Shown here piece by piece: positions 8,810-62,571 of a stretch of DNA of 64,000 nt (its first letter is position 1; the number at the start of each line of letters is the position of its first letter). The DNA comes from Dendrobates tinctorius. Taxonomy: Eukaryota. Both the position numbers and the translations under genes were made by a program. The notes under the pieces are model-generated. The model was not told where the DNA came from, ran no database searches, and was given only the letters and a program-made list of their open reading frames with translations. The DNA lies in contig NW_027361684.1 of the NCBI RefSeq assembly GCF_039654945.1, positions 52,452,001 through 52,516,000 on the forward strand. Direction: 5' to 3'.

Positions 8810-10058
8810 TATATAAAAAAATGAACAAGTCACGGTGAATAGGGAGAGATTAATAGAACCATAGATTATGATGGGCGCGTGTTCTCTCCAGGAAAACCAT
8901 GGACAGAACACGTGCGTGGAAAACTACCACCTCCATGAAGCCTTAATTATATAAAGACATTCATAATGCACATTTACAAAAACAATGTAGAATAAATATC
9001 AATTGCACACTCCTTTTGAATGCAAACAAGATTACATTTATTAAAAGTTCAAAACATAGGAGCAACCTTTGAATGTCAATGCGTCAATGCAACCACCCGG
9101 AAATATGTGAAATACAGGCTTTGCACATTTATCAACTTACTGTTGAGAGTCAGATTTCTGCGTTTACTCAGCAGGGATCCAGATCCTCACATTCTGCACT
9201 CTCCTCCTATTTTTCCACTGCAGAGGAGATTGCAGAGGAGATTGCCTTGCAGCAAATCTCTCCTAAGCTAAGTACTTCTGTCCTCTTACTGGGCATGCTC
9301 ATGGGACGATCTCCCATTGGAGATCGGGAGTCATGTGCACAGGTCCCGCTCCAGTTCTCATTGGTCCCTCTCAGAGATCTGGAAGCGTGCAGAAGGTCCC
9401 GGCTGCTATAAAAGGCGCGCATGGCTGTTCCGCCATGCGCTAGTATAGACTTACTTGCTGCTGTGTGTATGAGGACGGATGCATGATTCTGGTGACTGAC
9501 TCATTTGAAACCCCTTCCCTCTGATATTACGCATGTGGATAGGGACTGAGTTAGAATCAGCGCCAGCACTCCTCTGCTGCAACATCCACAGCTGCTAGCA
9601 TCCGACATTGCGCTTGCGCCTTGCCTTTGTCGTTTAGCTGCAGTGTCCACGCCGCGCTGCAGTAGCAGCCTTCTTTGCGTTCGCAGTTGCAACGCCGCGC
9701 ACACGGTAGGTCTAGACGGACGTAGTGTCGCCGTCTTGGGCTACTCCTGTGACCGTATACCGTGTGTGCGCTTTTTACTGAGTACTGTGACTACAACAGG
9801 CTCAGTCATTTGTGTTTGTACTTTTTGGCATCTCTGTGAGTTAACTGAGATTGCTCTGCGCACCTGGGTGAAGTTTAACCGTGTGCATTTCCGCCATATT
9901 GCTCCTGCCACCACTTAGCAGCAGTTATATCACCTACTGCACGGTGGACCCCGAGCGGCGAACGCACTTTATTATTTTTATTTAGTGCATTCCGAAGTTC
10001 CTAACATTATACTAGCGCCAGGGTCTGGCTAGTGATGGCAGAACAGCGGCAATTCTTA

Positions 10059-10253
10059 GGCTGGAGTCACACTACAGCGAGATACGGCTGAGTTTCACAG
10101 GTTAAAACCAAGCTCTGGCGCCGCCACTCCAGAGCGGAGCGTGCAGCTCCATGTATTGCTGTGCGGCTGCACGCTGCGCTCCGGAGTGCCGGCGCCAGAG
10201 CTTGGTTTTAACCTGCGAGACTTGGCCGTATCTCGCTGTGTGTGATCCCGGCC
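10059..10253. mobile_element. Harbinger MITE (palindromic, 195 bp)
   Basis: TTA TSD (10056-10058 and 10254-10256); TIRs GGCTGGAGTCACAC / GTGTGATCCCGGCC; inserted after codon 8 of gag (ATG 10035). Confidence 0.9.
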
Positions 10254-10272
10254 TTACAGTGTATTCGGCAGC

Positions 10273-11355
10273 TTGAGGGCCGGCTGGCCACTCGAGAGGG
10301 CTCTCTCAGCTGCACAATCCACCGAAGCTGCTGTAAAGGCAATCACAGACACAGTTTCCCGTATGTCCACGTCCTCCCCCGCGCCGACAGTTACCCAACT
10401 CCCGTTGCCCGATAAATTTTCTGGTGATGGCGCCTCCTGTAGGGGTTTCATCAGCCACTGCTCCATTCAGCTGAAGTTACTGGCTGCGCGATTCCCTACA
10501 GAACGGGCCAAGGTGGGGTTTATTGTCTCCCTGCTGTCGGGCAAAGCGTTGGAGTGGGCTACGCCACTATGGGAGCGTGGTGACCCAGAGGTCCGGACCG
10601 CTGCTCACTTTCTAACAGCTATTAAGCAGGTCTTCCTCGGTCCACGGGTCACGCACGATACCTCTCTTCAGCTTCTTGCTTTGACTCAGGGTGCACTCTC
10701 GGTTAGTCAGTATGCCGTCCGTTTTCGGACACTGGCTTCCGAGTTGGAGTGGTCCGATAAAGCCCTCATCCCTGTGTTTTGGAGAGGTTTGCCGGAGCAT
10801 GTTAAAGATGCTCTCTCCACTAGAGAGGTTCCTGCCAGTTTGGAAGAGCTGATTGCCATTTCCACCCGCATTGACCTCTGTTTTTCGGAGCGCGGTATGG
10901 AGCGTGCTCAATCCAAACGGAAGGTTACTCCGGCTCCCAATTTTTTTGAGCCTTTGGAACTCTCCGAGCCAGAGGTTCCACCTCCAGAGCCCATGGAGGT
11001 GTCTCCCGCCATTCTTCAGGCGTGTCCGGCACAAGACTCCAGTCGCTGTCATATTTGTCAACACGCGGTGTCTCAGAACAACAGTGCCCCGCAACGGCCA
11101 AATTCTGTACCGCCAGGTAAGGCCCTTGCTCCTCCCCACCTTCAGCCGAAGGTTCTTGCCTGGGCACACACGTCCAGGAGGGGTGGTCACTGTGGCTATA
11201 TGCAGACCACAAAACTCCTGGCAGGGTCTTACTGGTGGCCGCACAGGGCTCGGGATGTTAAAAATATATTCGGGCCTGCGCCTTTTGTGCTCGGAATAGC
11301 CTCCTTAAGCGAAGAGCGAAGACGCCTGCCGACACACGGTGGCGTTCCACTTTAA
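10273..11355 (+). pseudogene. Gypsy gag (PEG10/RTL-like capsid) fused to an integrase zinc-finger fragment
   Basis: LPDKFSGD..CRGFI..C, AKVGFIVSLLSGKALEWA..LW, QG..SV.QYA.RF, EPMEV; then AHTSRRGGHCG..T..LL..YWWP (integrase HHCC region). Confidence 0.85.
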
Positions 11356-12872
11356 CTTCAGCTCCCGTTGTCTCCAACGGGTCCCTTCTCAAACCTGGCG
11401 ATCTTGCCACCCCTGAGGCCTTCCACATGTCCCGGGTCTCTCTGTCATCTACCGGGACATGAGACTTGCCTGCGGACGAGTCTGAAGCCTATACCTCTTA
11501 CGGGCACAAGTTGGTGGATCGTAAGGCTCAGGGGGGGGGGGGGGGGTAATGTTAGGAGTCGGATTTCTGCATTTACTCAGCAGGGATCCAGATCCTCACA
11601 TTCTGCACTCTCCTCCTATTTTTCCACTGCAGAGGAGATGGCAGGAGATTGCCTTGCAGCAAATTTCTCCTGAGGCTAAGTCCTTCTGTCCTCTTACTGG
11701 GCATGCTGATGGGATGATCTCCCATTGGAGATCGGGAGTCATGTGCACAGGTCCCGCTCCAGTTCTCATTGGTCCATCTCAGAGATCTGGAAGCGTGCAG
11801 AAGGTCCCGGCTGCTATAAAAGGCGCACATGGCTGTTCCGCCATGCGCTAGTATAGACTTACTTGCTGCTGTGTGTATGAGGACGGATGCATGATTCTGG
11901 TGACTGACTCATTTGAAACCCCTTCCCTCTGATATTACACATGTGGATAGGGACTGAGTTAGAATCAGCGCCAGCGCTGCAACATCCACAGCTGCTAGTG
12001 TCAGACATTGTGCTTGCGCCTTGCCTTTGTCATTTAGCGGCAGTGTCCACGCCGTGCTGCAGTAGCAGCCTCCTTTGCGTTCGCAGTTGCAAACAGTAGG
12101 TCTAGATGGATGTAGTGCCGCCGTCTTGGGCTACTCCTGTGACCGTATACCGTGTGTGCATTTTTTACTGAGTACTGTGACTACAACAGGCTCAGTCATT
12201 TGTGTTTGTACTTTTTGGCATCTCTGTGATTTAACTGAGATTGCTCTGCGCACCTGGGTGAAGTTTAACCTTTTGTGCATTTCCGCCATATTGCTCCTGC
12301 CACCACTTAGCAGCGGTTATATCACCTACTGCACGGTTGACCCCGAGCGGCGAACGCACTTTATTATTATGTTTATTTAGTGCTTTCTGCCGTTCCTAAC
12401 ACTTACTCAAGGATATCTCTTGAACAATACCTTCCAGACTTAAATTGCATGTCCAGGGAAGAGAAATCCCTTTCTAGAAGAGAATACCTACTGAGTGCAA
12501 CTGTCGTGAAAAAGGCTTATTTGGCCGAAACGTGTTGACATTCAAAGGTTGCTCCTATGTTTTGAACTTTAATAAAAGTAATCTTGTTTGCATTCAAAAG
12601 GAGTGTGCCATTGATATTTATTCTACATGGTCTACGAGGGATCTCACCAATGCCCTCAATTGGCACCTCCGTTAGTGAAACTCAGAGTGCACGCCGATAT
12701 CTAATTTTCATTTACAAAAAACAAAACATCTCAATGAACAAAAGAAAACTCATCTCCAAACATCTGTCACATAAGTATACCATGTGAGAAGAAAAAGTGT
12801 ACGCAAAACAATTCCTGCATGTGTAAAACGTTCTCAAAAATGGCATATCTGTGCCATACACATTTCTATCAG

Positions 12873-16121: not shown

Positions 16122-19100
16122 TTATTTTTTACGGCGTTTGGGGGCAGATGGTTTCAATTTGGGGGTGTGCAGGGAATATGCAACACTTGCAGTTGAAGAC
16201 GGTGTTTGAGGGGAAGGGGCAACAAAACTTGTGGGGGAAGGTAGTCCAGTTAAGGGAATTAAACTTGGAACACTTGTAGGAGAGGAAATCTGTTCAGTTA
16301 CATTAGTTGTAATGGCATGTCGCCGTAGGCTTGTGTGCCTGGACCGACTTTGGCCCAATGCCCGCCTTGATTGATTTCGCCTTGAAGTAGGGGCAAATAT
16401 GGAATGTAGGTCCCCCGTCTGCTGGTATGGCTGCTGCTGCTGAGGTGGCGGCTGCTGCTGCAGAGGTTGCGGCTGCTGCTGAGGTGGCGGCTGCTGCTGA
16501 GGTGGCGGCTGCTGCTGAGGTGGCAGCTGCTGCTGAGGTGGTTGCTGCTGCTGAGGTGGTTGCTGCTGCTGCTGAGGTGGCGGCTGCTGCTGAGGTGGTT
16601 GCTGCTGCTGCTGAGGTGGCGGCTGCTGCTGAGGTGGCTGCTGCTGCTGAGGTGGCGTCTGCTGAGTTGGCTGCTGCTGCTGAGGTGGCTGATGCTGCTC
16701 TTCTTGGTCAGTGCTCGTCCTTGCAGGAGGACTGGTGGCGGCAGTGATGGCCCAGGTTTGCAGAGTGGTGGTGGCAGGGCTACTACATGTTGTTGTAGCG
16801 GCAGGGCTGTTCCATGTTTGCCTAGTGGTGGCTGAGCTCCACGCATGCATGGGATTGGCGGTGGTGCTCCAGACAGGAGCAGCGCTTGCCATGGTGGTGT
16901 CGGTGAAGTGACCAGCTGCACTCAGACTTGTGGTGGTGTAACGGTGGGTGTCCAGCCTTTGAAGAGAGGTGTCCGTGCAGTGGTATGCAGCACAAGTCGG
17001 TAGTGAGGTGAAGCGAGTCAATGGTGGCACAGGTGGAAAGGACACCACTGACTGCTGACCGTACCGATTATGCTGCATAGCCTGCAAGAAAGCATTGTTG
17101 CAGGCCTGCAGCACATTCAGCTGTTGATCAGGACTAAGGTGTTCCGCCATGCCCTTTTCAATCTTACTAAAAAAATGGTGTGCTGGTCTGTTGAGGTCGG
17201 CCTCCAGACGGTCAAGGCGCTGTTCTACAGAATTGAAGCGGTGTTCAAAGTGGTTAAAACCACGTTCCATCAGTGCAAAACCGCTTTCAACTCTGTCGGA
17301 CAGTGACTTGAGGCTGGAATTAAATGTCTCGCTCAAATGCATAAACTCGGGCAAGACATTCCTGTCCAAGGCCCTCTGCCGCTGGCGGGTAGTGCCCGCA
17401 TAACCAGTGGCAGAGACCTGGGACAGGGGAACACCTGATGGCCCAGCTTCCTGGTCACCAGCTGTGTGTGTGTGGGACCTGCAAGGTGCTTCCTGGCTGT
17501 CGGATGGCTGGGACGGGTCAGAGGACGTCCGACGAAGGACCGCTCCAGGGCCAGGTTGCAGGGTGCTGCTCCAGGTGCTGTGGAAGAAAGGAAAATCATT
17601 ACTACCATGCCTTTACAAGAAGCATCAGCTGTGGATTAGAAAAACACAGATTAATAAAAATAAAAACCCAAAATGTATAATACTTACGATCTTGTGGCAA
17701 GGACCGGTCTTAGGAACTGCAACGCGTGATAGTGACGGTATCTAGTTCTGGTCCTTGACGCAGATCCACTGCGAACCTGGCCCTCAGCACGAACATCACT
17801 GTTGAAGCGGTCCTTGATCGAACGCCAACGTGTTCGGACTTTGTCCACTGTTGATAAAAAAAAACAGTGCCGTCAAGTACAACACTCACTGCTTCACAAT
17901 TTAGCAATACAATACTCAAAGCAGTCACTGTACACCCCGATGACACTGTTGGGTTTCCTGCTAGAATACACCTAGCACGAAACCCAACAGTGCCGTCAAG
18001 GACAACAGTCACTGCGGCACAATGTAGCAATACAATACTCAAAGCAGTCACTGTAGACCACGATGACACTGTTGGGTTTCCTGCTAGAATACGCCTAGCA
18101 CGAAACCCAACAGTGCCGTCAAGGACAACAGTCACTGCGGCACAATGTAGCAATACAATACTCAAAGCAGTCACTGTAGACCACGATGACACTGTTGGGT
18201 TTCCTGCTAGAATACGCCTAGCACGAAACCCAACAGTGCCGTCAAGGACAACAGTCACTGCGGCACAATGTAGCAATACAATACTCAAAGCAGTCACTGT
18301 AGACCACGATGACACTGTTGGGTTTCCTGCTCGAATACGCCTAGCACGAAACCCAACAGTGCCGTCAAGGACAACAGTCACTGCGGCACAATGTAGCAAT
18401 ACAATACTCAAAGCAGTCACTGTAGACCACGATGACACTGTTGGGTTTCCTGCTAGAATACGCCTAGCACGAAACCCAACAGTGCCGTCAAGGACAACAG
18501 TCACTGCGGCACAATGTAGCAATACAATACTCAAAGCAGTCACTGTAGACCACGATGACACTGTTGGGTTTCCTGCTAGAATACGCCTAGCACGAAACCC
18601 AACAGTGCCGTCAAGGACAACAGTCACTGCGGCACAATGTAGCAATACAATACTCAAAGCAGTCACTGTAGACCCCGATGACACTGTTGGGTTTCCTGCT
18701 CGAATACGCCTAGCACGAAACCCAACAGTGCCGTCAAGGACAACAGTCACTGCGGCACAATGTAGCAATACAATACTCAAAGCAGTCACTGTAGACCACG
18801 ATGACACTGTTGGGTTTCCTGCTAGAATACGCCTAGCACGAAACCCAACAGTGCCGTCAAGGACAACAGTCACTGCGGCACAATACAGAGCAGGGAAATA
18901 CTCACTAAACGCCTTTTTGGCGGATGCTGTGGCGCTGTCCCAGCCATCCATCAACGCTGCGGCCACCTCATTCCATAGCCGCCGTGTCACCACATTGTCC
19001 TTGTACAGCCGGTCACGGCTGTCCCACAACGGCGAACGCTCCTGGACCAGGCTGATGAGCTGCTCATTATCCAGGTAGACGTCTTCATCCCGTTGTGGAA

Positions 19101-19449
19101 CCTAGACAAAACACATTCATTAGAATAATCAAATTTAAATTGACTAAAAAGTTACAAAAAAAGAAAAAAAAAAAAGAGTAAAAATAGAAGATAAAAAAAA
19201 AAAAAAAACATTACAAATCATTTGATACTTACATTACGTATCACCACCGGGACTTGGCTTCGCTGCTCCTGCTGTTCGCCCTCACTATTCCCGTCCGCAG
19301 ATGATGATGACGATGTCTGAAAATTGAAAAAAACGTAAGAGATTTGGAGAAGCAGCAGATATACTTACCAGATGCACGAAAATAATCACCTCACGGTCTG
19401 CTTGCGCCAATTCCTGCCGCGATGGGGAATACTCCGATTCTGAAGACAT
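16122..19449 (-). CDS. Harbinger Myb/SANT-like (MADF) DNA-binding protein, 5 coding exons, about 651 aa
   Basis: Exons 19449-19390, 19316-19233, 19101-18906, 17847-17688 and 17577-16122, all GT-AG and phase-consistent. MADF signature LISLVQERSPLWD..Y......LWNEVA....VRTRWRSIKDRF; coiled-coil-like region, Q/P tract, C-terminal PKRRKK. The first donor has an alternative at 19369. Confidence 0.88.
16425..16700 (-). repeat. Coding CAG-rich repeat (QQQQPP tract)
   Basis: Repeated GCTGCTGCTGAGGTGG units on the plus strand encode PPQQQ repeats on the minus strand. Confidence 0.9.
17862..18884. repeat. 123-bp intronic tandem array (8.3 copies), one hairpin per unit
   Basis: CCTAGCACG recurs at 17971, 18094, 18217 ... 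18832. The array fills intron 17848-18905 of the MADF gene. Confidence 0.95.
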
Positions 19450-21465: not shown

Positions 21466-22656
21466 CTATAGAAGAAATGGCCGGAGCTGAGCCTCCGGGC
21501 AGTCGGCCCCGTCGGCGTTGAGGGAGCGGCGTTCAAAACGGGTGAGGCCTCCAGACCGGCTCTCACCCGATTTGGCTCCCCGGGCCTTGTGCCGCCGCAG
21601 GAGCCCCTCCCGGGACCCTCCAGGCCGGGCGCCATGCAATCCCCGCACGTGCCCCGCTCTGGGAGGAATCCACAGGCTCGGTGAGGCCCCGCGGCGGTGT
21701 CTAGTCCTCCGTTTCGCTCTCTGGAGGGGGAGGAGCAGCCACGTGCCAGGCGGCACATTTTACCTGCCTCATCGGGGGCCACGGCGGTAGCATCCCTGCC
21801 GCGCGGCCTGCTCCCTCCTCCAGGCCCCGGGCGTTCATCGGCAGAACTGCGGCCTGTCAGTAGGCAGGGCTCTCGTCACCATCCCCCAGTGGTGGGGGGG
21901 GCATCAGTTCCTGTGAGGGGCCGCGGCAGCGGAGGGCCCGCAGCGCAGCCTGCTTTGTCAGCCGGAACTAGGTGTGTTAGTCCCCATAGCAGTGTGTCAG
22001 CGGCCTGCAGCACTGCAGGGCTTGTGCCGTCGATTCCCACGAACGGAGGCAGTGGGTTCTTTCCGGGCATCCAGGAAGCACCACGGGGGGCCATTGATGT
22101 CTCCACACAAAATAACGGTACATTACCAGGAGCTCTCAGCGTGACGACCCGGACAGCTTCGTTATCCGGGGTCCAGCAATCGGGATCCCCCCGGGGTTCA
22201 GGCCTCACACCCCTGTTCTGTGGGGAGTCTCAGAGGTCAGCAGCAAGCCGGCGGGACCTTCATCGTCAGGCGGGACGGCGACGATGCATCCGCGGATCCA
22301 GGTTTTCCGGCTGGAGGGCACACAGCCCCCTCGCAGCCTGGTGAGTATGCTTCTGTGTCCACTGTGTATCATCCATTTTTGTCATCATTGGAAGGGGGGG
22401 TCCGTTGGCTGGATCTCTCGGTGTTGGAGGGGGGAGGGTCGGCGTTGAGTGGGGTAGCCGCGGTCGGGGGAGTTAATGATGTGCTTGCGGATGTGCGCAA
22501 TTTGCTTTCACTCTTGGAGTGGGGTTTGGTCGCACAGTCTCCGTTAGCAGCTTGGGTTGGGTCGAGGGTCGGGTACCTACTTCGCAGAGCAGACCAGAGC
22601 CGGCCGAGCGCGCCGGTGAGCCGGTGTCGGTGCAAACTTAAAAGGAGGAGTGTCGT

Positions 22657-23361
22657 GTGCATTTGAACGACAGGGTGCATGGGGAGGTGTATGTCTGCTT
22701 TGAAGGCCCGCTGGGGGCTCATTTAAAGAAGGAAGTGAAAGAGCGCATTTGGAAGGATGAGTACGTGGAAATATTTTCCTTGTTGCCTCTCAAGAAATTT
22801 AATCTGGATAAGAGTAAGAAAGAGGCTAGCAAGAAGGAGGAGGAAGAAAAACGCAGGTGGCGCTTAATCCCTCAGACGTTTATCAACTGGCAGCAGGCCT
22901 TTGCCATTTTGGCAAGCGTCATTGGGGAAAAAGCCCCTGACAATTGCTCTGCCCTGTTTTGTTACCTGGATGCTATAGGGGAAGCTTACAGAGTGTATGG
23001 GGGTCAGGCGGGGCTGAGGTACAATGAGCAATTTCGGCAGAGGAAGGCTGTCCGTACTGCTATCTGTTGGGACCAGAAGGACATTGGCCTGTGGATGCGT
23101 GTTATAGCACAAAATAAGTTTGGGAGCTCCTTTCATGGGGGGCTGGGAGCACCAGCCAAAGTAGCAGTAACTTCAGCGGCACAAGCGGAAGCGGGCAAGG
23201 GCAAACAGCAAGTCACAAATTGGGTGTGTGCTGGCAGTTTAACGACGGCCAGTGTAAGTTTGGGGCAAATTGCAAATTCAAGCATCTCTGCTCCAACTGC
23301 AACGCGCTTCACAAGGAGCGTCCGAGTGTTTCAAAAAAGAGAAGCCCAGAGCCCGGAGTAG
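22657..23361 (+). pseudogene. Ngaro gag-like ORF
   Basis: PLGAHL..EVKERIWKDEYVEIFSLL, W.QAF.ILASV, Y.EQFRQR; frameshifted CWQFNDGQCKFGANCKFKHLCSNC zinc finger. Confidence 0.8.
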
Positions 23362-23379
23362 TAATTCACAAGGGGGAGA

Positions 23380-24490
23380 CTCCAGTGAATCTGGAAAAGA
23401 TGGACCCTTCTCCAAATAGATATACGGACAGGGATAAAGCAGCATTGCTTTATGCGGGTTTTAAGGAGGGTTTTGTTATCCCTCATCCCCCGTTCGTCAT
23501 TCCGCTAGTTTTGAAGAATTTGCGTTTGGCTCTGTTGCATACCGCGGTCATTTCAGAGAAACTTGAAAAGGAAGTTTCGTTGGGCCACATGGCTGGCCCC
23601 TTTGTTTCTCCCCCGTTTTCGGACTTGGTGGTTTCCCGTTTGGGAGTTGTTCCGAAAAAGGAGCCGAATAAGTTTCAGCTTATTCAGCACTTGTCTTACC
23701 CACGTGGGAGGTCGGTTAACGACGGTATTGATCCAGAGATCTGTTTGGTGGTTTACTCATCCTTCGATGAGGCAGCACGGTGGGTGTGGAAGTGCGGTCG
23801 GGGGGGCCCTCATGGCTAAGACTGATGTCGAATCCGCATTTTGTCTTTTACCAGTCCACCTGGATAGCATGGAGCTGCTGGGTTGCTATTGGGAAGGCAT
23901 GTTTTTCGTGGACAGGTGTTTACCCATGGGATGTTCGTTGTCCTGCGCGTATTTTGAAGCCTTCAGTTCTTTTCTTGAGTGGGTTGTGCGTGATGTTTCC
24001 GGTTTCGAATCGGTCACTCACTACTTTGATGATTTTTTGTGCGTTGGCCCTGCGGATTCATTGCGTGGTCACAGGATCTTGAAAGCCATTGAGTGGGTGG
24101 CTGAGCGTTTTGGAGTCCCACTGGCGCCCGGTAAAACGGAGGGCCCTAGTACGTGCCTGCGTTTCTTTGGGATTGTCATTGAGTTCAGGCTGCCTGAGGA
24201 CAAGGTAATGGATCTGCAGGCGGAAGTGGTTCGGGCGCGCCGTTTGAAGAAAGTTTCGCTGCGTGATCTCCAGTCGCTGTTGGGGAAGCTAAACTTTGCA
24301 TGTCGAGTTATGCCGATGGGGCGGGTTTTTTCACGTAGGCTGGCAAGCGCTACTGCGGGGATTCGAGCCCTTCATCATTTCATCAGATTGTCGTCGGAAC
24401 TCAAGGCAGATTTGGCGGTTTGGGAGTCTTTTTTGGAGGGGTATAATGACAGCTCGTTGGTGATGGCTGAGGTTGTTGGTAACGACGCGG
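23380..24490 (+). pseudogene. Ngaro reverse transcriptase (frameshifted, RNase H deleted)
   Basis: LGVVPKK..FQLIQHLSYP, MAKTDVESAF, LPMGCSLS, HYFDDF, KTEGP, LQSLLGKLNFA. Confidence 0.9.
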
Positions 24491-24499
24491 GTTTTCACC

Positions 24500-25076
24500 T
24501 CTTCAGAAGCAGGGGCGATTTGAGGCGGCCAGTATCTTTTAATTTATTGGAGCAGTTGGGCATCATTTTGGAATCGGTATGTTCTTCGCGTTACGAGGTT
24601 TCGTTGTTTCATCTAGCTTTTTCGTTTGCATTTTTGGGGCTTTACGCGTGGGAGAGCTTGTTTCCTCCAGCAAATAGTAGTTAGGCGGGTTATTGGCTAG
24701 AGATGTCATATTGACCTTGCGAGGCGTTGAATTTTGGCTGCGGCGGTCCAAGACGGATCAGTCGGGAAAAGGCCGAGTGGTGTTGGGCAGCGTGCCCGGT
24801 TCCTTAATGTGCCCCGTTCAGTGCTTACAGCGTTTTTGGGAGCTTCGTCGCAGCTTGAACGGCTCTCTGTTGTGTCATGTTGATGGTGGTAGTCTGTTCG
24901 GCGCCGTTTTCAAGAAATCCATTAGGTTGTTGGGCCTGGACGACTCCCGCTTTGCTCCTCATTTTATCAGGATAGGGGCAGCAACGGAAGCAGCAGCTGG
25001 GGGTTTGGGTCCGGCTTCTATACAGCGCATTGGTGGTTGGAAGTCCAATCGGTACTGCAGTTACATTAGGCCTTAA
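24500..25076 (+). pseudogene. Ngaro tyrosine recombinase, C-terminal part
   Basis: D.RRPVS, AF.GAL-like, RRSKTDQ.G.G, CPV, PH.IRIGAAT.AA, IQRIG.WKS..Y.SYIRP. Confidence 0.88.
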
Positions 25077-25781
25077 TTTTGCTGTCATCTAGTGCAATCT
25101 TTCATTTAATGGTACAATCTCTGCTCCTGCTGCAATCCCTGTTTGCTGTCATCTAGTGCAACCTTTCATTTAACGGTATATAACAGTGCCTACTAAATGT
25201 TTTCTAAATTCATTTGTTGCATTGAACTCAATACTTACTGCTGTATAGCCATCTTGGGGCCAGTAGAGATGTTATCAGGTGTAAGGTGCTACTAGCATAT
25301 GGATGTAGCCAGGCCCTGTGCCTTTGATTTGTCTAACATCCCCTGGTGTGCTAGGCAATTGGTAATTTATCCCAAATCAGTTCCCACAATCCATCTCACC
25401 TGATCCTCTACTTAGCCCTATATATTCAGATGCCTTCTAGGGGGGCACGTGTGCGGGTCAGGCACACGTGTCTCCCTGCAGCAAAAGTATAGCGAAAATG
25501 CAGTTATTACTACGGCAGTTAGTCTTGGCAGGAGTCAGGACCCCACACTATCTACCTGTCTCTTTTGGGTATGTCTGCTGAGTAAGCCATTCTTATTACT
25601 TGGACCTAGCTTATTTCTTCACCATGTTTACATATGCCCTCACAGTGTTGTTTGCTCCTTTAGTCCTCATTCTCCTTCGCTATCCCCAAACCCCAGCAGC
25701 CTCTAACCAAATAATCATCTCCCCTTCCCTCCCCACCTGACCTCCTTTGCTGAACTGCTCCTCAACCTCAAATCTGTCCGA

Positions 25782-26756
25782 ATGAAACATAAAACAAGCT
25801 GCCCACTCTCCTTCTCCCATCTGCTCTCCCTTTCTCTGCTTCTCCTCACTGCTGGCGACATATCTCTCAATCCCGGACCCCCACAGCTCTCACCCCCCAC
25901 TACTTCCCCTTCCTACCGCTCCCTATCTAATAAGAACTACCACAATCTTTCCAACTTAAAACCTGTGCCATTGACACCCAACCCCCTGCTCCCTCTCTCG
26001 GGTGCACATTGGAATGCCCGCTCCATATGCAATAAGCTCCATGTGATTCATGACCTCTTTCTCTCTCACAATCTTGCCTTCCTCGGCCTCACAGAAACAT
26101 GGCTGACACCCTCTGACACCGCCTCCCCTGCTGCGCTGTGTTACGGCGGCCTCCACTTTACCCACACTCCTTGCCCTGGCAACAGACACGGTGGAGGAGT
26201 GGGTCTTCTCCTTTCTTCCAACTGCACCTTCAACCCAATCTCACCTCTTCCCTCCCTAATCCTTCCCTCTTTTGAAGTCCACTCTGTCCTCATCTACTCT
26301 CCCTCCAACCACCAAGTGGCCGTCATATACCGACCTCCAGGCCCGACCACTGCCTTCATTGACCAATTCTCTACCTGGTTTCTTCATTTTCTTTCAACTG
26401 ACACCCCCACTATCATCATGGGTGACTTCAACATCCCCACTGATACCCTTCAGTCAGCAGCCTCCAAACTCCTGTCCCTTACTTCATCCTTTGGACTTAC
26501 TCAGTGGTCCTCCTCAGCCACCCACACAGATGGACACACATTAGACCTGGTCTTCACCCATCTCTACTCTCTTTCTAACTTCACCAACTCCCCTCTCCCT
26601 CTATCTGACCATCATCTACTCACTTTCTCATCCCTGTCCTCCTCACCTGGCACCCATGTCCAGCAACACGCACACCCCCGCAGAAACCTTGCACACCTAG
26701 ACATCCACCCCCTCTTACTCTATTCTACCACTGGCATCCATATCCTCACTCCATGA
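25782..26756 (+). pseudogene. L2 ORF2 N-terminus: 2A-like motif and APE endonuclease
   Basis: LLLLTAGDISLNPGP, WNARS, LTETWL, GGGVG, IYRPP, MGDFN, TH.DGHTLDLV, LSDH; frameshift after 26700. Confidence 0.9.
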
Positions 26757-27521
26757 CACAGACAGTGCCACTGCTTTCTACAATGCCACTCTCGCATCAG
26801 CTATTGACACGGTTGCCCCTCTTGTTCATGGTAGAATGCGACGTATCAACAGACAACCCTGGCACAATAACACCACTAAAAAGCTCCGGCAAGTGTCCAG
26901 GACTGCAGAGCGGTGCTGGAAGAAAACAAATTCGCAAGATGACCACCACATTCAAACAGGCAACACTCGACTTCAAATCTGCCCTCACCTCTGCTAAACA
27001 GGCCTAGTTCACAACCCTCATATCTTCCCTATCTTAGAACCCAAAACAGTTATTCAAAACTTTTAACTCCCTCCTCCACCCACCACTGCCTCCTCCAACC
27101 TCCCTCATCTCTGCCGAGGACTTTGCCACACATTTCAAAAACAAGATTGACCAAACAAGGCAAGTCTTCATCACTCAACCACCACAACCCCTTTGTATAC
27201 CAGACCAATGCCCAAACCCCATAACTTCACTCTCCAACATCAGTGAAGGGGAGCTTAATCGCCTCTTTTCCAAATCGCACCTCACAACCTGTGCACTTGA
27301 CCCCATCCCATCCCACTTCCTCTCCAACCTCACCACCACACTTATCCCATCCCTAACCCACCTCTTCAACCTATCACTAACGTCCGGTACCTTCACTTCT
27401 GCTTTCAAGCATGCCACAATCACGCCTATCCTTAAAAAGCCAACCCTGGACCCAACCACTATGTCCAGCTATCGCCCAATATCATTGCTTCCATTCGCTT
27501 CCAAACTCCTGGAACAGCATG

Positions 27522-28245
27522 TGTTATGAATGAGTCACCGAGGAGGAAAAAACAAACAGCAAGCTAAGCCCAGAAAACCGGAGAGGTTGGTAACTAGCGG
27601 ATTGCAGACCCCTGTTCCTATCCCCACAACTAGCAGTAGCCGTGGAGCGTGCCTACGGTGGTCCTATATGCCTCGTCACGGCCGGAGAACTAAATAAGCC
27701 TAAAGAAAGGGAAAATCTAAACTGCCCCAGAGCAGACCCCAAAGCAATAGACAGCCCCCAACATGTATTGTCGGTGAAACAAGATGAAAACACAAACACA
27801 GATAGAAAGATAGGCTGAGCAAATGATGGGGCCCTCACTAACTAGAAAGGACAGGAAAGAAAAGCTGCTGTCTGCAGTCACGCAAAAAACCCTGCCAACA
27901 CGTCTGATAGAAAAAGGCCCTGAAGTCGCTAGACTTCAATTCCCTATATCAGCACTCAGGTATATTCTGAAGACAGAGCAAAAGAGGTAAACTGATCAGA
28001 GACAAAATGGGGATTCAGCCCAGTCCCAGCCAGGGCTGACTGAACACAAAAACGAAGCAAACCAGACGAAAATTCATATGAACAATTGCAGAGAAAACTT
28101 AGCTTTAAGAAGGCAGGAACCAAACTGGAAACCAGAAGCCACAGTCAGGAGAAATCACCAGCAAGAAACTAGGGAGTCGGCTGCCTTAAATCCAATCAGA
28201 AATTCCTGATGTCCAATCACAGTCCTCTTCCTCAGGTGGCCCGCT
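27522..28245. mobile_element. Truncated LTR fragment inside L2
   Basis: Begins TGTTATG exactly where L2 coding similarity stops. The other end was lost together with the L2 RT; no TSD. Confidence 0.55.
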
Positions 28246-28595
28246 GCCTCCTTCTCTCACCACTACTGGTGATATCACCTCAACCAACACCGGAACTGCT
28301 GCAACCCACCAACCTACTGTCTCCTTCCCCACCATCCTGTAGCATGTAAGCCTGAAAGGGCAGGGTCCTCTCCCCTCTGTATCAGTCTGTCATTGTTAGT
28401 TTGTTTACTGTAAGTGATAACTGTAATTTGTATGTAACCCCGTCTCATGTACAGCACCATGGAATCAATGGTGCTATATAAATAAATAATAATTTTGGGG
28501 GTTGGCTCGGGGAGAGCATGGGGGGGTGGAGAGAGAGTTACGTTCACTAGTATTTCAGGTATGTTTATGATTTTAGCAATGCCTTTTTGTTTCAG

Positions 28596-29287
28596 GTGTC
28601 GAGCCTTTGCTGGTTTGCATTTTTGGTCATTCCTTTGTTTATTGGGGAGCATTGCGAGCCGATATCAGGAACGAAGGCAGACAGCTGGGCTTCCCCAGGA
28701 CCATGGCGTTGGTGCGGTGGCTTGGTTTCAGGAGAATGGAGTGGAGAAGGGTTCTACAGGAAATACATGACTGCGCCCAGTTGGACCGTGCACCGGACAT
28801 TCTTATTCTTCACGTTGGGGGCAACGATCTGGCGGTCCAACCCTTTCGTGAACTGATAAAGGACATTAAGCAGGATTGTTTGCGGTTGTGGTTGTTGTAC
28901 CAGGGGGTTACTATCGTCTGGTCTGATATTGTTCCATGCAGGCGATGGCCTTCTATGAGGTCCTTGGCAAAGGTAAATAAGGCCAGGATCAAAGTCAACA
29001 AGGCGGTGTCTCCTTTTGTTGTTAGGAATGGGGGAGTGGCTGCGCGACATTTTGACCTGGAAAAGGGCGAGGGCGATTTTTGGCTGGCCGACGGGGTCCA
29101 TTTAAACGGTGTTGGTTCCGACATTTGGGCTCTCGGTCTTCAGGAGGGCATAGAGAAGGCCATAGCATGGCGGGTTGAGGGGGGATTCAGGCCATTGAGG
29201 TGTTCAGGGGCCCTTGTTGTGACGGTTCGGAGGAGGGGGGAGTCCTTGAAGTCGGTTGGAAATTGCTTTTGGAGACTCAGTGTTTAG
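28596..29287 (+). CDS. SGNH/GDSL hydrolase ORF of the Ngaro element
   Basis: Block I IFGHSFV, block III ILHVGGNDL, block V DGVHL; the open frame begins at acceptor tttttgtttcag. Confidence 0.85.
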
Positions 29288-30075
29288 GGTCTCCTCCATT
29301 AAAAAGGTATGTTGGTGGTGATCTGGTGAAAGGTGGATGGGGAGTTTCCGACAGAAGTGGGCGGATCCCCAAGTAGCTTAGTGGACAATATATCTCGGTG
29401 TGTTGGTGCTCCTGAGCCTGTGGGGTAACGGCAGTGAGTAATATGATGGGTTTTGTTCACAGCATTTTCGGGCTACTTCACCTAGATCTTGTGGCTTCAA
29501 GGACTCCTCCTCAGTGTTCAAGTTTATTGTATTTATGTCATTCATAATACATTGTCTACTGTTTGTTGTTTAATAAAAAGCTGCTGTGGCCATAAATATA
29601 CAGAGTCTATAGTATACTTGATATGATAAATCAAATGTTTTATTTGCTGTTGTACCAGCCAGACACAATGGCTGAACAGACACGTTCATTCATACATGGA
29701 CTGTGTCTTCTCTATGGCAGAAAGAAAACCCTTTCTACATCAGAAATGAAACTATAGAAAGTGGATTTCTGGATAAGCAGATTGGACCTTGATATCTTCA
29801 TCAAGCTCAGAAAACCTTGTATTTGTTAAAATAAAATAGGCATCCATCACTGCCGACCTTTAATCACTTCTGGCTGATGCCAAAGCCTATATAGCTATAT
29901 CATTCGACTGTCCGCTGTATAATACAGTAATGCTGCTGTCAGTGCATTTCTCCAACGCCTTGCCAGGCATCTCCTCCCTGTTCATCATGCCATCTATATT
30001 GTGCTATATAAAGCTGCTACTAAACAGCCATGCCAGTAAAAACATCTCCTGCCTGCTTATGTGTTATAGGGCTAC

Positions 30076-48454: not shown

Positions 48455-51400
48455 TTATTATTATTATTATTTATAAAGCACCATTGGTTCCATGGTGCTG
48501 AACATGAGAAGGGGTTACATACGAATTACAGATATCACTTACAGTAAACAAACTAACAATCACAGACTGATATAGAGGGGAGAGAGGACCCTGCCCTTTC
48601 GGGCTTACATGCTACAGGATGATGGGGAAGGAGACAGTAGGGTGGGGGGTTGCAGCAGCTCCAGTGGGGCAGGGAATTCCAGAGGATTGGGGCTATTCAG
48701 GAGAAGTCTTGGTGGCGATTGGTTGAGGAGCGAATAAGTGTGGAGGAGAGAAGGAGGTCTTGGGAGGACCGGAGATTATGTGAGGGAAAGTATCGGGAGA
48801 TTAGTTCAGAGATGTAAGGAGGAGACAGGTTGTAGATGGCCTTGTAGGTCAGTATTAGTAATTTGAATCGGATACGCTGAGGGAATGGGAGCCAGTGAAG
48901 AGATTTGCAGAGGGGAGAAGCGGAGTAGAGAAGACAGAGATGAATTAGTCAGGCAGCAGAGTTGAGGATGGACTAGAGAGGTGCAAGGGCAGGGAGGCAA
49001 CAGAAAAGGATGTTGCAGTAGTAGAGGCTGGAGATGTTGAGGACATGCACAAGTAGTTTAGTAGATTGAGGGTTGAGGAAGGGACGGATTCTGGAAATAT
49101 TTTTGAGTTGGAGGCGACAGGAGGTGGAGAGAGCTTGGATGTGCGGTTTGAAGGACAGGGCAGAGTCAAGGGTTACTCCAAGGCAGCAGACCTCCGTTAC
49201 AGGGGAAAGCGTGATGTCAATTGTTATAGAAAGGTCGGGTAAGGAAGATCTGTGGGAAGGGGAAAGATGTTTAGTTAAGATTTGTCCACATTGAGTTTGA
49301 GGAAGCGAGAGGAGAAGGAGGATATGGCTGATAGACACTCTGGGATTCTGGAGAGCAGAGAGGTGACGTCTGGGCCAGAGAGGTAGATCTGAGTATCATC
49401 AGCATAATGGTGGTACTGGAATCCGAGGAACTTTACGAGTTGCCCCAGGCCAAGTGTATAAATTGAGAAGAGTAGGGGTCCTAGAACAGAGCCTTGGGGG
49501 ACTCCAACAGAGAGAGAGTGGGATGAGGAGGTATTGTGGCAGTGGGAGATGCTGAATGTGCGGTTGGAAAGGTATGAGGAGATCCAGGATAGGGCGAGGT
49601 CTTTGATGCCAAAGGAGGAGAGGATCTGTAGTAGGAGGCAGTGGTCAACTGTGTCGAAAGCAGAGGACAGATCCAGAAGGAGGAGTATAGAGTATTGTCC
49701 GTTAGCTTTGGAAGTAAGTAGGTCATTGGTAATTTTGGTCAGGGCTGTCTCAGTGGAATGATGGGGGCAGAAGCCAGATTGTAGATTGTCAAAGAGCAAG
49801 TTAGATGAGAGGTGGGAGGAAAGTTCAGCGTGGACATGCTGCTCCAGGAGTCTAGAAGCGAATGGAAGTAGCGATATTGGGCGATAGCTGGACGTGGCTG
49901 TTGGATCAAGGGTTGGCTTTTTAAGGATAGGTGTGATTGTAGCATGTTTGAAAGCAGAAGGGAAGGTACCAGAAGTTAGTGATAGTTTGAAGAGGTGAGT
50001 TAGGGATGGGATAAGAGTGGTGGTGATGTTGGGGAGGAGTTGGGATGGATCGGGTCAAGTGCACAAGTGGTGAGGTGTAATTTGGAGAGGTGAGCAAGCT
50101 CCCCTTCAGTGATGTTAGATAAGGAGGTTATGGGGCATTGGTCTGGTTTGCAAAGGGGTCGTGGTGGTTGAGGAATAAAGACTTGCTGTGTTTGGTCTAT
50201 CTTGTTTTTGAAGTGTGCGGCAAAGAACTCGGCCAAGATTAGGGAAGTCGGAGGGGGCAGTGGTGGGGCAGTGGTGAGCGGAGGAGGGAGTTAAAAGTAT
50301 TGAACAAATGTTTGGGGTTGTGGGATAAGGAAGATACAAGGGAAGATACAAGGGATGTAAAGTAGGCCTGTTTAGCAGAGGTGAGGGCAGATTTGAGTGC
50401 AAGTGTTGCTAGTTTGAGTGCAGTGAAGTCGTCTTGCGAATGTGTTTTCTTCCAGTGCTGTTCTGCAATTCTGGATGCTTGCCGAAGCTTTTTAGTGATG
50501 TTATTGTGCCAGGGTTGTCTATTGATTCGTCGCACTCTGTTATGCATGACAGAAGCGACCGAGTCGATGGCTGATGCAAGAGTGGCATTGTAGAAAGTAG
50601 TGTCAGTGTCGTGGAGTGAAGATAGAGGACAGTGGTAGAATAGAGTCAGAGACTGTGCGAGTGTCTAGATGTGCGAGGTTTCTGCGGGGGTGCGCATGCT
50701 GCTGGACATGGGTGACAGGTGAGGACAGGGATGAGAAAGGGAGTAGATGGCGGTCAGATAGAGGAAGAGGGTAGGTGGTGAAGTTACAAAGAGAGCAGAG
50801 GCGGGTGAAGACCAGGTCTAATGTGTGTCTGTCTGTGTGGGTGGCTGAGGAGGACCACTAAGTCCAAAAGATGAAGTAAGGGACAGGAGTTTGGAGGCAG
50901 CTGACTGGTGGGTGTCGATGGGGATGTTAAAGTCACCCATGATGATGGTGGGAATGTCAGTAGAGAGGAAATGAAGGAGCCAGGTAGATGTCACGGCCGC
51001 CGCTGATACTCACCTGCCGTGTCCTGTGCGCACCTCCCGGCGTGCACCCGCTCCCCGGCGCGTCCCCGCTGCTGACCTCCAGCCTCCCCGACGTCGCTCC
51101 CACGCTCCTCTGGCCGGAGCTCTGACGGCGTCATGTGACACTGTGGCTCCGCCCCCAACATGGCGGCGCCGCGTCATGTGATGCGGTGGCTCCGCCCCCA
51201 ACATGGCGGCGCCCATCAGCTATTTCTGGCAGGCGTCTCCCCAGGTAAGACGCCTGTGAATCGTTCTCGGACTGCTGTCCTTTTGGCCAGCGCCCTGCAC
51301 GCTCTCAGGCCCTGCTACACTTCTCCTCCTACCCCTGCTCTGTTAGGTTTCCTTGACTGTTCTCTCTCGGTTCGCTCCTCTGGCTGTTCCGTTTCCCTGT

Positions 51401-52560
51401 CTCCTTCCCGGTGTGCTAGCGCCCTGTGGACTCCTTGTCCGTGCCCTCTCTCACCCGCTCTCTCCTTCTGTCTCCTACCACTGACCTCCCGTGCCGCTGC
51501 TCCGCTGACTCTCCACCCTAGTTCCTCTGGTGCTCACCCAGTCGCCCCTTTGGCTCCGGCTGTCACGGTTCCATCCCTTGTGGGCCTGCCCCTAACACTC
51601 CCTGTATAGGGGGTGGCTCCACCTGGTCTAGCTCACCCGCAGGGGCTCTGGGGCCATGACCCAGAGGGTCCACTCCGTGTTGCTCTCCTTGTTTTCTGCC
51701 ACCCGTAACACTCCGTAACAGTAGAGAATTGGTCAATGAAGGCAGTGGTCGGGCCCGGAGATCGGTATATGACAGCCACTTGGAGGTTGGAGGGAGAATA
51801 GATGCGGACAGAGTGGACTACAAAAGAGGGGAGGACAAGGGAGGGAAGAGGTGGGATTGGGTTGAAGGTGCAGTTGGAAGAAAGGAGAAGGCCAACTCCT
51901 CCACCAAGTCTGTTGCCAGAGCGAGGAGTGTGGGTGAAGTGGAGGCTGCCGTAACTAAGCGCAGCAGGGGAGGTGGTGTCGGAGGGTGTCAGCCATGTTT
52001 CGGTGAGGCAAAAGGAAGGAAAACTTACGAGAGGTAAAGAGGTCGTGAATCACATGGAGTTTATTGCAGACGGAGCAGGCATTTCAGAGTGATCCAGAGA
52101 GTGGGAGCAGGGTGGTGGTTGTCATGGGCATGGATCTGAGGTGGGAAAGATCTCTGATGTTTATGTTTGTTTTGGTACGATAGAAGGGGGTAATAATGGG
52201 AGGTATGAGCTGTGGGGGTCCAGGGTTGGTAGATATGACGCCAGCAGTGAGGAGAAGCAGAGAGAGGGAGAGTATGTGGGAGGAGGGTGGGTGGCTTGTT
52301 TTGTATTTTATTAGGAGAGCTCTGAGGTTGAGGAGCAGTTCAGCAGAGGAGGTCAGGTGGGGAGGCAAGAGGGAAGGAGAGATTACTATTTGGTTAGCGG
52401 GTGCTGGAGTGTGCGGATAGCCAAGGAGAGTGAGGATTAATAGAGCCAAAACTGTCAGCATGGTGAGGGTAATTTAGAAGGCAAAACAAATTTAGTACAT
52501 CTAAACGCAGTGGTTAGTCGTTCCTTCTGGTCACTTCAGGCATATTTCAGAATTTATCCT
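48455..52560 (-). mobile_element. Near full-length degenerate L2 LINE
   Basis: (TTA)n tail at 48455; RT motifs [37 protein letters not shown]; APE fragments; 2A-like GVISTNPGP. Confidence 0.92.
50989..51720 (+). mobile_element. Solo LTR inside the L2 endonuclease region
   Basis: TGTCACGG...CCGTAACA with 5-bp TSD GTAGA. Confidence 0.9.
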
Positions 52561-61939: not shown

Positions 61940-62571
61940 TTTATTATTATTATTACTATTTATTTATATAGCGCCATTGATTCCATGGTGCTGTACATGA
62001 GAAGGGGTGACATACAAATTACAGATATCACTTACAGTAAACAAACTAACAATCACAGACTGACAGAGGGGAGAGAGGACCCTGACCTTTTGGGCTTACA
62101 TTCTACAGGATGGTGGAGAAGGAGACAGTAGGTTGGGGGGGTTGCAGCAGCTCCAGTGATGGTGAGGCGGTAGCTCCAGTAGTGGTGAGGAGGTAGCGGG
62201 GTCATTGCAGGCTGTAGGCTTTCCTGAAGAGATGGGTTTTCAGGTTCCGTCTGAAGGATCCGAGTGTGGTTGATAGCCGGACGTGTTGGGGCAAAGAATT
62301 CCAAAGGATGGGGGCTATTCGGGAGAAGTCTTGGAGGCGGTTGGGTGAAGAGCGAATAAGTGTGCAGGAGAGGAGGTGGTCTTGGGAGGATCGGAGATTA
62401 CGCGAGGGAAGATATCGGGAGATTAATTCAGAGATATTGAAGGAGACAGGTTATAGATGGCCTTGTAGGCCAGTATTAGTAATTTGAATTGGATACACTG
62501 AGGGAATGGAAGCCAGTGAAGAGATTTGCAGAGGGGAGAAGCGGAGGAGGAGCGAGGAGAGAGATGAATTA
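61940..62571 (-). mobile_element. L2 3' fragment
   Basis: Same tail as at 48455 and 28300-28490; cut by the Tc1 insertion. Confidence 0.88.

Follow-up and report, generated by a model that had tools for sequence, protein, structure and literature searches.

In the Xenopus Ngaro retrotransposons DIRS-53_XT and DIRS-54_XT, a fourth open reading frame (ORF), described as being "with no proven function", encodes an SGNH hydrolase (PMC9210276). An esterase is also part of the ORF1 protein (ORF1p) of ZfL2-1, a CR1/L2 element without long terminal repeats (LTRs), together with a coiled coil and an arginine-rich motif (PMC3905857, sections covered), and Ty1/Copia elements are reported to balance their proteins through a conserved alternative splicing event, in which genomic RNA gives rise to shGAG RNA (PMC5580714, sections covered). 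How the overlapping, ATG-less recombinase and hydrolase ORFs of DIRS-order elements come to be expressed is unexplained in the literature covered. This question is taken up here from a 64,000-nt stretch of the Dendrobates tinctorius genome (contig NW_027361684.1, positions 52,452,001 to 52,516,000; hereafter the window), which holds at 21475-29599 a decayed Ngaro tyrosine-recombinase (YR) retrotransposon. A preliminary description of the window had proposed that a spliced subgenomic mRNA fuses the ORF1 N-terminus to the SGNH hydrolase and omits the gag core, reverse transcriptase (RT) and YR. The conservation of sites and phase and the gene models of other frogs support this proposal, and they extend it: as judged from sequence, frog Ngaro elements very probably combine one donor in ORF1 with two downstream acceptors, yielding three proteins with a common N-terminal part.

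Conservation of the ORF1 donor and the SGNH acceptor

In the window, the donor ...cctcgcagcctg/gtgagt (22340/22341) is in phase 1 of frame 22145-22666, which is the ORF1 frame of those sister copies where this ORF is intact (L001, L002, L007, L009). The acceptor ...tttttgtttcag/gt (28595/28596) is likewise in phase 1 of the SGNH frame (28577-29287), in which no ATG precedes the catalytic GHS codons and a stop lies 17 codons upstream of them. The two sites, their phase and the lack of an ATG had been read correctly in the preliminary description, and the joined frame follows directly from the window sequence. About one perfect G/GTRAGT is expected by chance in a 6-kb element (a rough estimate), so that a single copy proves little and the weight rests on the family.

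The 6.36-Gb genome was searched with an SGNH-domain query (6514 first-look candidates, 150 scored), and 40 of the best SGNH matches were compared together with 20 of 112 matches to a more distant query, a non-random sample. The 40 close copies and the window form six subfamilies (78-89% identity in SGNH), and the 20 distant copies add further ones (64-77% amino acid identity), for at least ten subfamilies across the 60 sister copies. The donor GT is kept in all 36 close copies that could be aligned (five loci are without the region) and the full GTGAGT in 34 of them, as well as in 16 of 17 distant copies, and the phase is 1 wherever ORF1 is unbroken. A phase-shifted donor in L058 was dismissed as an exception, the 5-nt insertion responsible also breaking ORF1. 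Among 83 conserved GT columns the donor ranks first, with a score of 4.83 of 5 against 3.17 for the runner-up. One subfamily has replaced the split Gly codon by Cys and still retains GTGAGT, suggesting that selection acts on the RNA signal and not on the residue.

The acceptor AG stands at a constant distance from GHS in 40 of 41 close copies, spanning the six subfamilies, and in 19 of 19 of the distant set once the deletion derivative L041 is set aside, or 59 of 60 overall, and it is the second of 48 conserved AG columns. In an 18-copy alignment the non-coding spacer shows little conservation in its upstream part (modal base mostly 33-72%); most positions of the T tract stand at 72-94%, and CAG/G is invariant (100%). 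Conservation of donor, acceptor and phase, a check named beforehand for vertebrate Ngaro elements at large, holds across the sampled Ngaro subfamilies of the Dendrobates genome. As a separate observation, an AG with a pyrimidine-rich lead lies ~36-39 nt 3' of the donor in L047, L048 and L050 and at window position 22394; it matches the start of an extra segment in the Bufo isoforms P0012 and P0013, and, if used, it would mean either an unusually short intron or one more isoform.

In the SGNH domain, the catalytic blocks GHS, GxRG, GGND and DGVH are complete in ten of ten subfamily representatives, and dN/dS has a median of 0.09 in 23 of 45 pairs, 22 saturated pairs being left out; by this codon comparison, the domain is under purifying selection. 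The SGNH stop falls in most subfamilies at the equivalent of 29196-29198 and lies ~30 codons further on in three of four copies of the window subfamily. Dozens of identically scoring SGNH matches (contigs C68, C76, C197, C251, C402 and others) suggest, in addition, a Ngaro subfamily that is very young or has spread by segmental duplication.

No start codon shared across the family is available to this domain. An in-frame ATG ahead of the catalytic serine is absent from 50 of the 60 copies, and in the 41 close copies an in-frame stop lies a median of 18 codons before GHS. The main counter-result is that the other 10 copies (4 of 41 close, 6 of 19 distant) do have such an ATG, placed 18 codons before GHS in four of five copies of one subfamily. 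The preliminary description had named an in-frame ATG before block I as evidence against splicing; such codons are thus confined to a minority, at distances from GHS that differ and at no position shared across the family. They could serve a free esterase of ~200 residues, whose synthesis would depend on an internal promoter, on ribosomes reinitiating past the recombinase stop or on a near-cognate codon, the splice-like sites then being by-products. The short gap of 40-100 nt between the recombinase stop and SGNH would suit this explanation, as would the failure to see a donor-acceptor junction read, in contig data that are uninformative on the point. Such a free product is nevertheless very unlikely, given the conservation of a non-coding pyrimidine tract and CAG and the gene models discussed below, in which the join falls exactly at the acceptor.

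A YR-SGNH fusion, arising when ribosomes shift out of or read through the recombinase frame, is an exceedingly improbable source of the esterase and, for the Dendrobates genome, largely refuted. It would make use of the T run ahead of the SGNH start, and the Xenopus consensus ORFs have been reported as overlapping (PMC9210276, parts covered). In the largest subfamily, however, the recombinase stop comes first, followed by a stop in the SGNH frame and only then by the T run; this in-frame stop between recombinase stop and acceptor excludes read-through there. Spacer length, moreover, varies freely between subfamilies.

A probable second acceptor ahead of the tyrosine recombinase

In 53 of the 60 loci the recombinase frame likewise opens at an acceptor in phase 1 that has a pyrimidine tract and, in most subfamilies, a branch-like CTGAC motif. 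At most of the 53 loci a stop lies 7 codons upstream, and an upstream ATG is present in five. This acceptor is the first of the 48 conserved AG columns, and no conserved acceptor ahead of RT was evident in the same scan of conserved columns. Six of 23 longer recombinase homologues are fusions of the N-terminal part of ORF1 (ORF1N) to the recombinase, with the Val expected at the join, and in Pristimantis the models P0022 (SGNH) and P0269 (recombinase) have a common N-terminal part that is 98% identical over 240 aligned residues. The sequence evidence hence indicates that the ORF1 donor likely serves the ATG-less recombinase as well. The single SGNH splice of the preliminary description is supported, but this second acceptor for the same donor had been missed.

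Gene models in other frogs

Among 41 longer SGNH homologues, 30 show the ORF1 N-terminal hallmarks without gag core, RT or YR (two of the 30 add CCCH fingers), and six are without the hallmark. The predicted junction motif, defined as QP, QL or VP followed by a residue with a G-starting codon, 3-8 residues before the first strand, is found in 24 of the 41, compared with 1.8% of background positions. The ORF1N-SGNH models come from Bufo, Dendropsophus, Rhinoderma, Hyperolius, Eleutherodactylus, Pristimantis, Rana and others, represent many loci (30 members in one Bufo cluster) and include numbered isoforms; related models occur in Hyla, Engystomops and Xenopus. RNA alignments are the usual basis on which RefSeq numbers isoforms.

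Several points weigh against a shared-donor interpretation. The cross-species support consists of gene models whose RNA basis is uninspected, and gene finders also favor strong splice sites. The junction motif was widened after inspection of the data. The donor footprint (QPGE, QSGK) is kept in only 12 of 31 contiguous ORF1 homologues tested, some perhaps by chance. In five of the 41 longer SGNH homologues, the segment fused to SGNH comes from RT, YR or the gag core, and P0012, P0013, P0104 and P0126 join the donor to a nearby acceptor internal to ORF1, from which it appears that several splice isoforms may exist. For the second acceptor, its location within the RNase H coding sequence means that part of its conservation may reflect protein constraint. 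Finally, no spliced genomic retrocopy with the donor next to the SGNH start was found for two subfamily groups (0 matches, versus 596 unspliced matches for the first group), a result tempered by the fact that the splice model does not require reverse transcription of the spliced RNA.

Part of this evidence could also mean that the acceptor is real and usually paired with another donor, be it that of an ORF1 mini-exon, one in RT or YR, or a host exon through exon trapping, with the fusion at the present donor as a minor isoform. The 27-40 extra residues of P0012 and P0013 and the five models with RT or YR pieces are compatible with this possibility, as is a host gene: in the Dendrobates KRAB zinc-finger model P0041 a host exon is joined to the same SGNH start, and its paralogues P0074-76 continue into their own next exon instead. 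Yet the remaining conserved donors score 3.2 of 5 at most, the direct join is the commonest form (24 of 41), and the mini-exon isoforms themselves yield an ORF1N-SGNH fusion, which leaves a different principal donor a quite unlikely solution.

Four genomic matches with the donor next to the recombinase start were rejected, all being unrelated or within RT/RNase H. L041 was considered as a spliced copy on account of its 518-codon open frame and rejected as well, since a single deletion between similar sequences joins its ORF1 end to its SGNH start; this element (L041:4103-8382, G000:C86) has RT and YR deleted, the full C-terminal half of ORF1 in frame with SGNH and intact split repeats, with one match in the genome. 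At L038:1859-7600, four contig runs contain eight joints, none at the donor or acceptor; one run, of unknown kind, covers 30 of 30 bins and the other three cover 2-4, and these data are uninformative on the splice.

Some gene models may record later host use. Similar ORF1N-SGNH models in Phyllobates, Ranitomeya, Engystomops and Hyperolius (P0008, P0018, P0038, P0039, P0142, P0234, P0255) have a common N-terminus, several with a EESIELRIERLL motif, and may represent a domesticated gene; no near-identical match was present among the 112 scored Dendrobates genome matches (best 69%). The ranid models P0029-P0031, P0033, P0034 and P0036, in which ORF1N is followed by acidic repeats and then SGNH, some with repeated CCCH fingers, are possibly a second domestication.

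A shared-leader model

What the sequences show directly is where the sites lie, that they agree in phase and are conserved, that neither downstream gene has a start codon common to the family, and that both junctions occur in database gene models. In the model of one donor and two acceptors, the donor lies ~318 codons into ORF1. Unspliced RNA would be translated into full ORF1, removal of a ~2.5-kb intron would give an ORF1N-recombinase protein, and removal of a ~3.5-kb intron an ORF1N-SGNH esterase; we infer that both splices occur in Dendrobates cells. The shared part, a short helical hairpin followed by ~285 basic disordered residues, would bring esterase and recombinase to the RNA-protein complex of the element.

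The predicted structure of a natural Bufo fusion has a confident helical hairpin (residues 2-30), ~235 disordered residues and the SGNH domain, with a fold matching GDSL lipases, PAF-acetylhydrolase and the ZfL2-1 esterase. In L002 the leader comprises 317 residues with an isoelectric point (pI) of 11.7, and the esterase has a pI of 11.0. No membrane segment or signal peptide is evident in the fusions from hydropathy (<1.9) and the structure model, no dedicated predictor having been run. A role of the leader as common tag for the RNA-protein complex of the element is conceivable, with the balance tipping slightly against it.

An envelope-like role for the spliced esterase, in particle exit or cell entry, was considered as well; the preliminary description had drawn an analogy to env expression and proposed that a lipid-acting enzyme might be targeted to particles. 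The 3' position of the gene and the predicted spliced RNA that would skip pol agree with env, ORF3 of rotifer LTR elements is a GDSL esterase (PMC5408684, parts covered), and the ZfL2-1 esterase binds liposomes (PMC3905857). Against this stand the hydropathy and the absence of an evident signal peptide or membrane helix, a predicted architecture of hairpin, disorder and alpha/beta hydrolase, the retention of ~317 Gag residues, and the likelihood that the donor also serves the recombinase, which is a nuclear enzyme and would bear the same N-terminus. The analogy may therefore be kept for the predicted RNA layout, and an envelope function is unlikely.

A broader and rather speculative proposal is a shared-leader splicing program in vertebrate Ngaro elements, in which the hairpin and basic disordered region would act as an address tag on recombinase and esterase, making these proteins about twice their annotated length. 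The three products would co-assemble on the element RNA, the esterase might work on the nuclear envelope or another membrane to deliver the complex of cDNA and recombinase, and host genes could acquire the esterase through its ready-made acceptor.

The window copy

The element in the window is a dead member of the family and cannot make the fusion product, and the question therefore concerns the family. Remnants of a CCCH finger (zf-CCCH), RT (RVT_1, E 4.7e-06), recombinase (Phage_integrase, E 0.002) and GDSL/SGNH domain (Lipase_GDSL_2, E 0.00026) are found by Pfam in this order (Table 1). In relatives the layout is complete, with ordered and overlapping ORF1, RT/RNase H and tyrosine recombinase, an SGNH ORF of the amphibian Ngaro type starting 40-100 nt 3' of the recombinase stop, and split direct repeats A1...B1-A2-B2, detected by self-comparison in L001, L007, L008, L011, L038, L041, L047, L048 and L050; the window copy retains only a stub of A1 and part of B1. 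Set against the closest relative among those compared, its ORF1 is without the start codon and the first ~35 codons, and a deletion of ~730 nt at 24488/24489 has removed RNase H, the recombinase acceptor and the 5' part of the recombinase. A long interspersed nuclear element (LINE) of the L2 group, flanked by an 8-nt target duplication (TAATTTTG, at 25074-25081 and 28490-28497), sits between the recombinase stop and the SGNH acceptor and fills 3.4 kb of the apparent intron, which measures 6.25 kb here versus ~3.5 kb in undisturbed relatives (L002: 2993-6498). The preliminary description placed the ends of this span correctly, but the L2 insertion, the loss of the ORF1 start and the ~730-nt deletion went unmentioned.

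Table 1. Features of the Ngaro copy in the window (positions of the window).
Feature	Position	Strand	Remarks
5' split direct repeat A1, stub only	21475..21496	+	Alignment to L011; A1...B1-A2-B2 layout of relatives
Deletion of ~280 nt just 3' of the A1 stub			Takes rest of A1, ORF1 start codon and N-terminal helical hairpin; alignment to L011
Remains of the putative shared exon 1	21492..22340	+	Basic, low-complexity ORF1 N-terminal region, frameshifted
Predicted splice donor GTGAGT	22341..22346	+	Phase 1 in ORF1; 596 exact 19-nt matches genome-wide
ORF1 C-terminal half	22341..23419	+	Gag core and CCCH finger; would be skipped by the splice; broken
RT remnant	23118..24488	+	Ends at the ~730-nt deletion
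Tyrosine recombinase C-terminal remnant	24489..25076	+	Includes the stop
L2 LINE insertion	25082..28489	+	Endonuclease ORF, truncated RT, AATA tail and a further ~700-nt insert; not Ngaro sequence
Polypyrimidine tract and predicted CAG acceptor	28580..28595	+	Phase 1; 29 nt upstream of the GHS codons
SGNH hydrolase exon	28596..29287	+	GHS, GGND and DGVH present; one conserved block-II residue lost
Repeat B1 remnant	29220..29599	+	Element truncated; A2 and B2 gone

Other repeats occur elsewhere in the window. Further L2 copies at 48467-52372 and 61952-62549 are related to the insertion at 25082-28489 (inverted matches, 76-93%). On the minus strand, an ORF of 463 codons at 17710-19101 runs through nine tandem 123-nt units, with two frames open. 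Long direct repeats, paired at a distance of 2.4 kb in 9138-12631 and of 4.9 kb in 40292-46021, suggest LTR elements.

Comparison with known systems

In retroviruses and gypsy elements, a single splice removes the pol region and reaches the 3' env gene, whose product takes up no or few Gag codons and relies on a signal peptide and membrane anchor of its own. The Ngaro fusion would instead keep ~317 ORF1 residues, has no evident membrane segment and would share its donor with the recombinase. Murine leukemia virus makes an alternatively spliced fusion of Gag with the integrase frame, and foamy virus makes a spliced pol; as proposed for Ngaro, a protein related to integration there comes from a gag-internal donor or from a spliced RNA of its own, although element class and enzymes differ.

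The Dendrobates family shares split direct repeats, ORF1, RT/RNase H, YR and an SGNH ORF with DIRS-53_XT and DIRS-54_XT, in the description covered (PMC9210276). Four separate ORFs are reported there, and "splic" and "intron" have 0 occurrences in the main text of that paper, whereas in Dendrobates two of the ORFs appear to be spliced exons on a shared ORF1 leader. No published report of a Ngaro splice was found, including in the covered sections of PMC7192593, PMC8547959, PMC2632668, PMC9341512 and PMC4495291; the founding papers of Goodwin, Poulter and Butler and the Repbase notes, which lay outside this search, may mention splicing. The Ty1/Copia splice yields Gag alone, to judge from the parts of PMC5580714 covered, and the Ngaro splice would in contrast remove the gag core and build fusion enzymes. 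If true, a shared spliced first exon would provide defined proteins to express and assay, and would account for frog RefSeq models named "collagen-like" or "IF-2-like".

In its protein architecture, the putative Ngaro fusion most closely recalls the ZfL2-1 ORF1p, both having a helical N-terminal domain, an arginine-rich or basic linker and a basic SGNH domain (PMC3905857, sections covered). The Bufo fusion matches the fold of the ZfL2-1 esterase (PDB 4C1B) with E 2.4e-07, and sequence likeness is weak (E 0.55). The ZfL2-1 protein is a single unspliced ORF1 and the sole RNA-packaging protein of its element, whereas the Ngaro fusion would be a second isoform beside Gag. The fusion layout points to convergence with the ORF1p esterase of CR1/L2 elements, for which a membrane role in retrotransposition is proposed.

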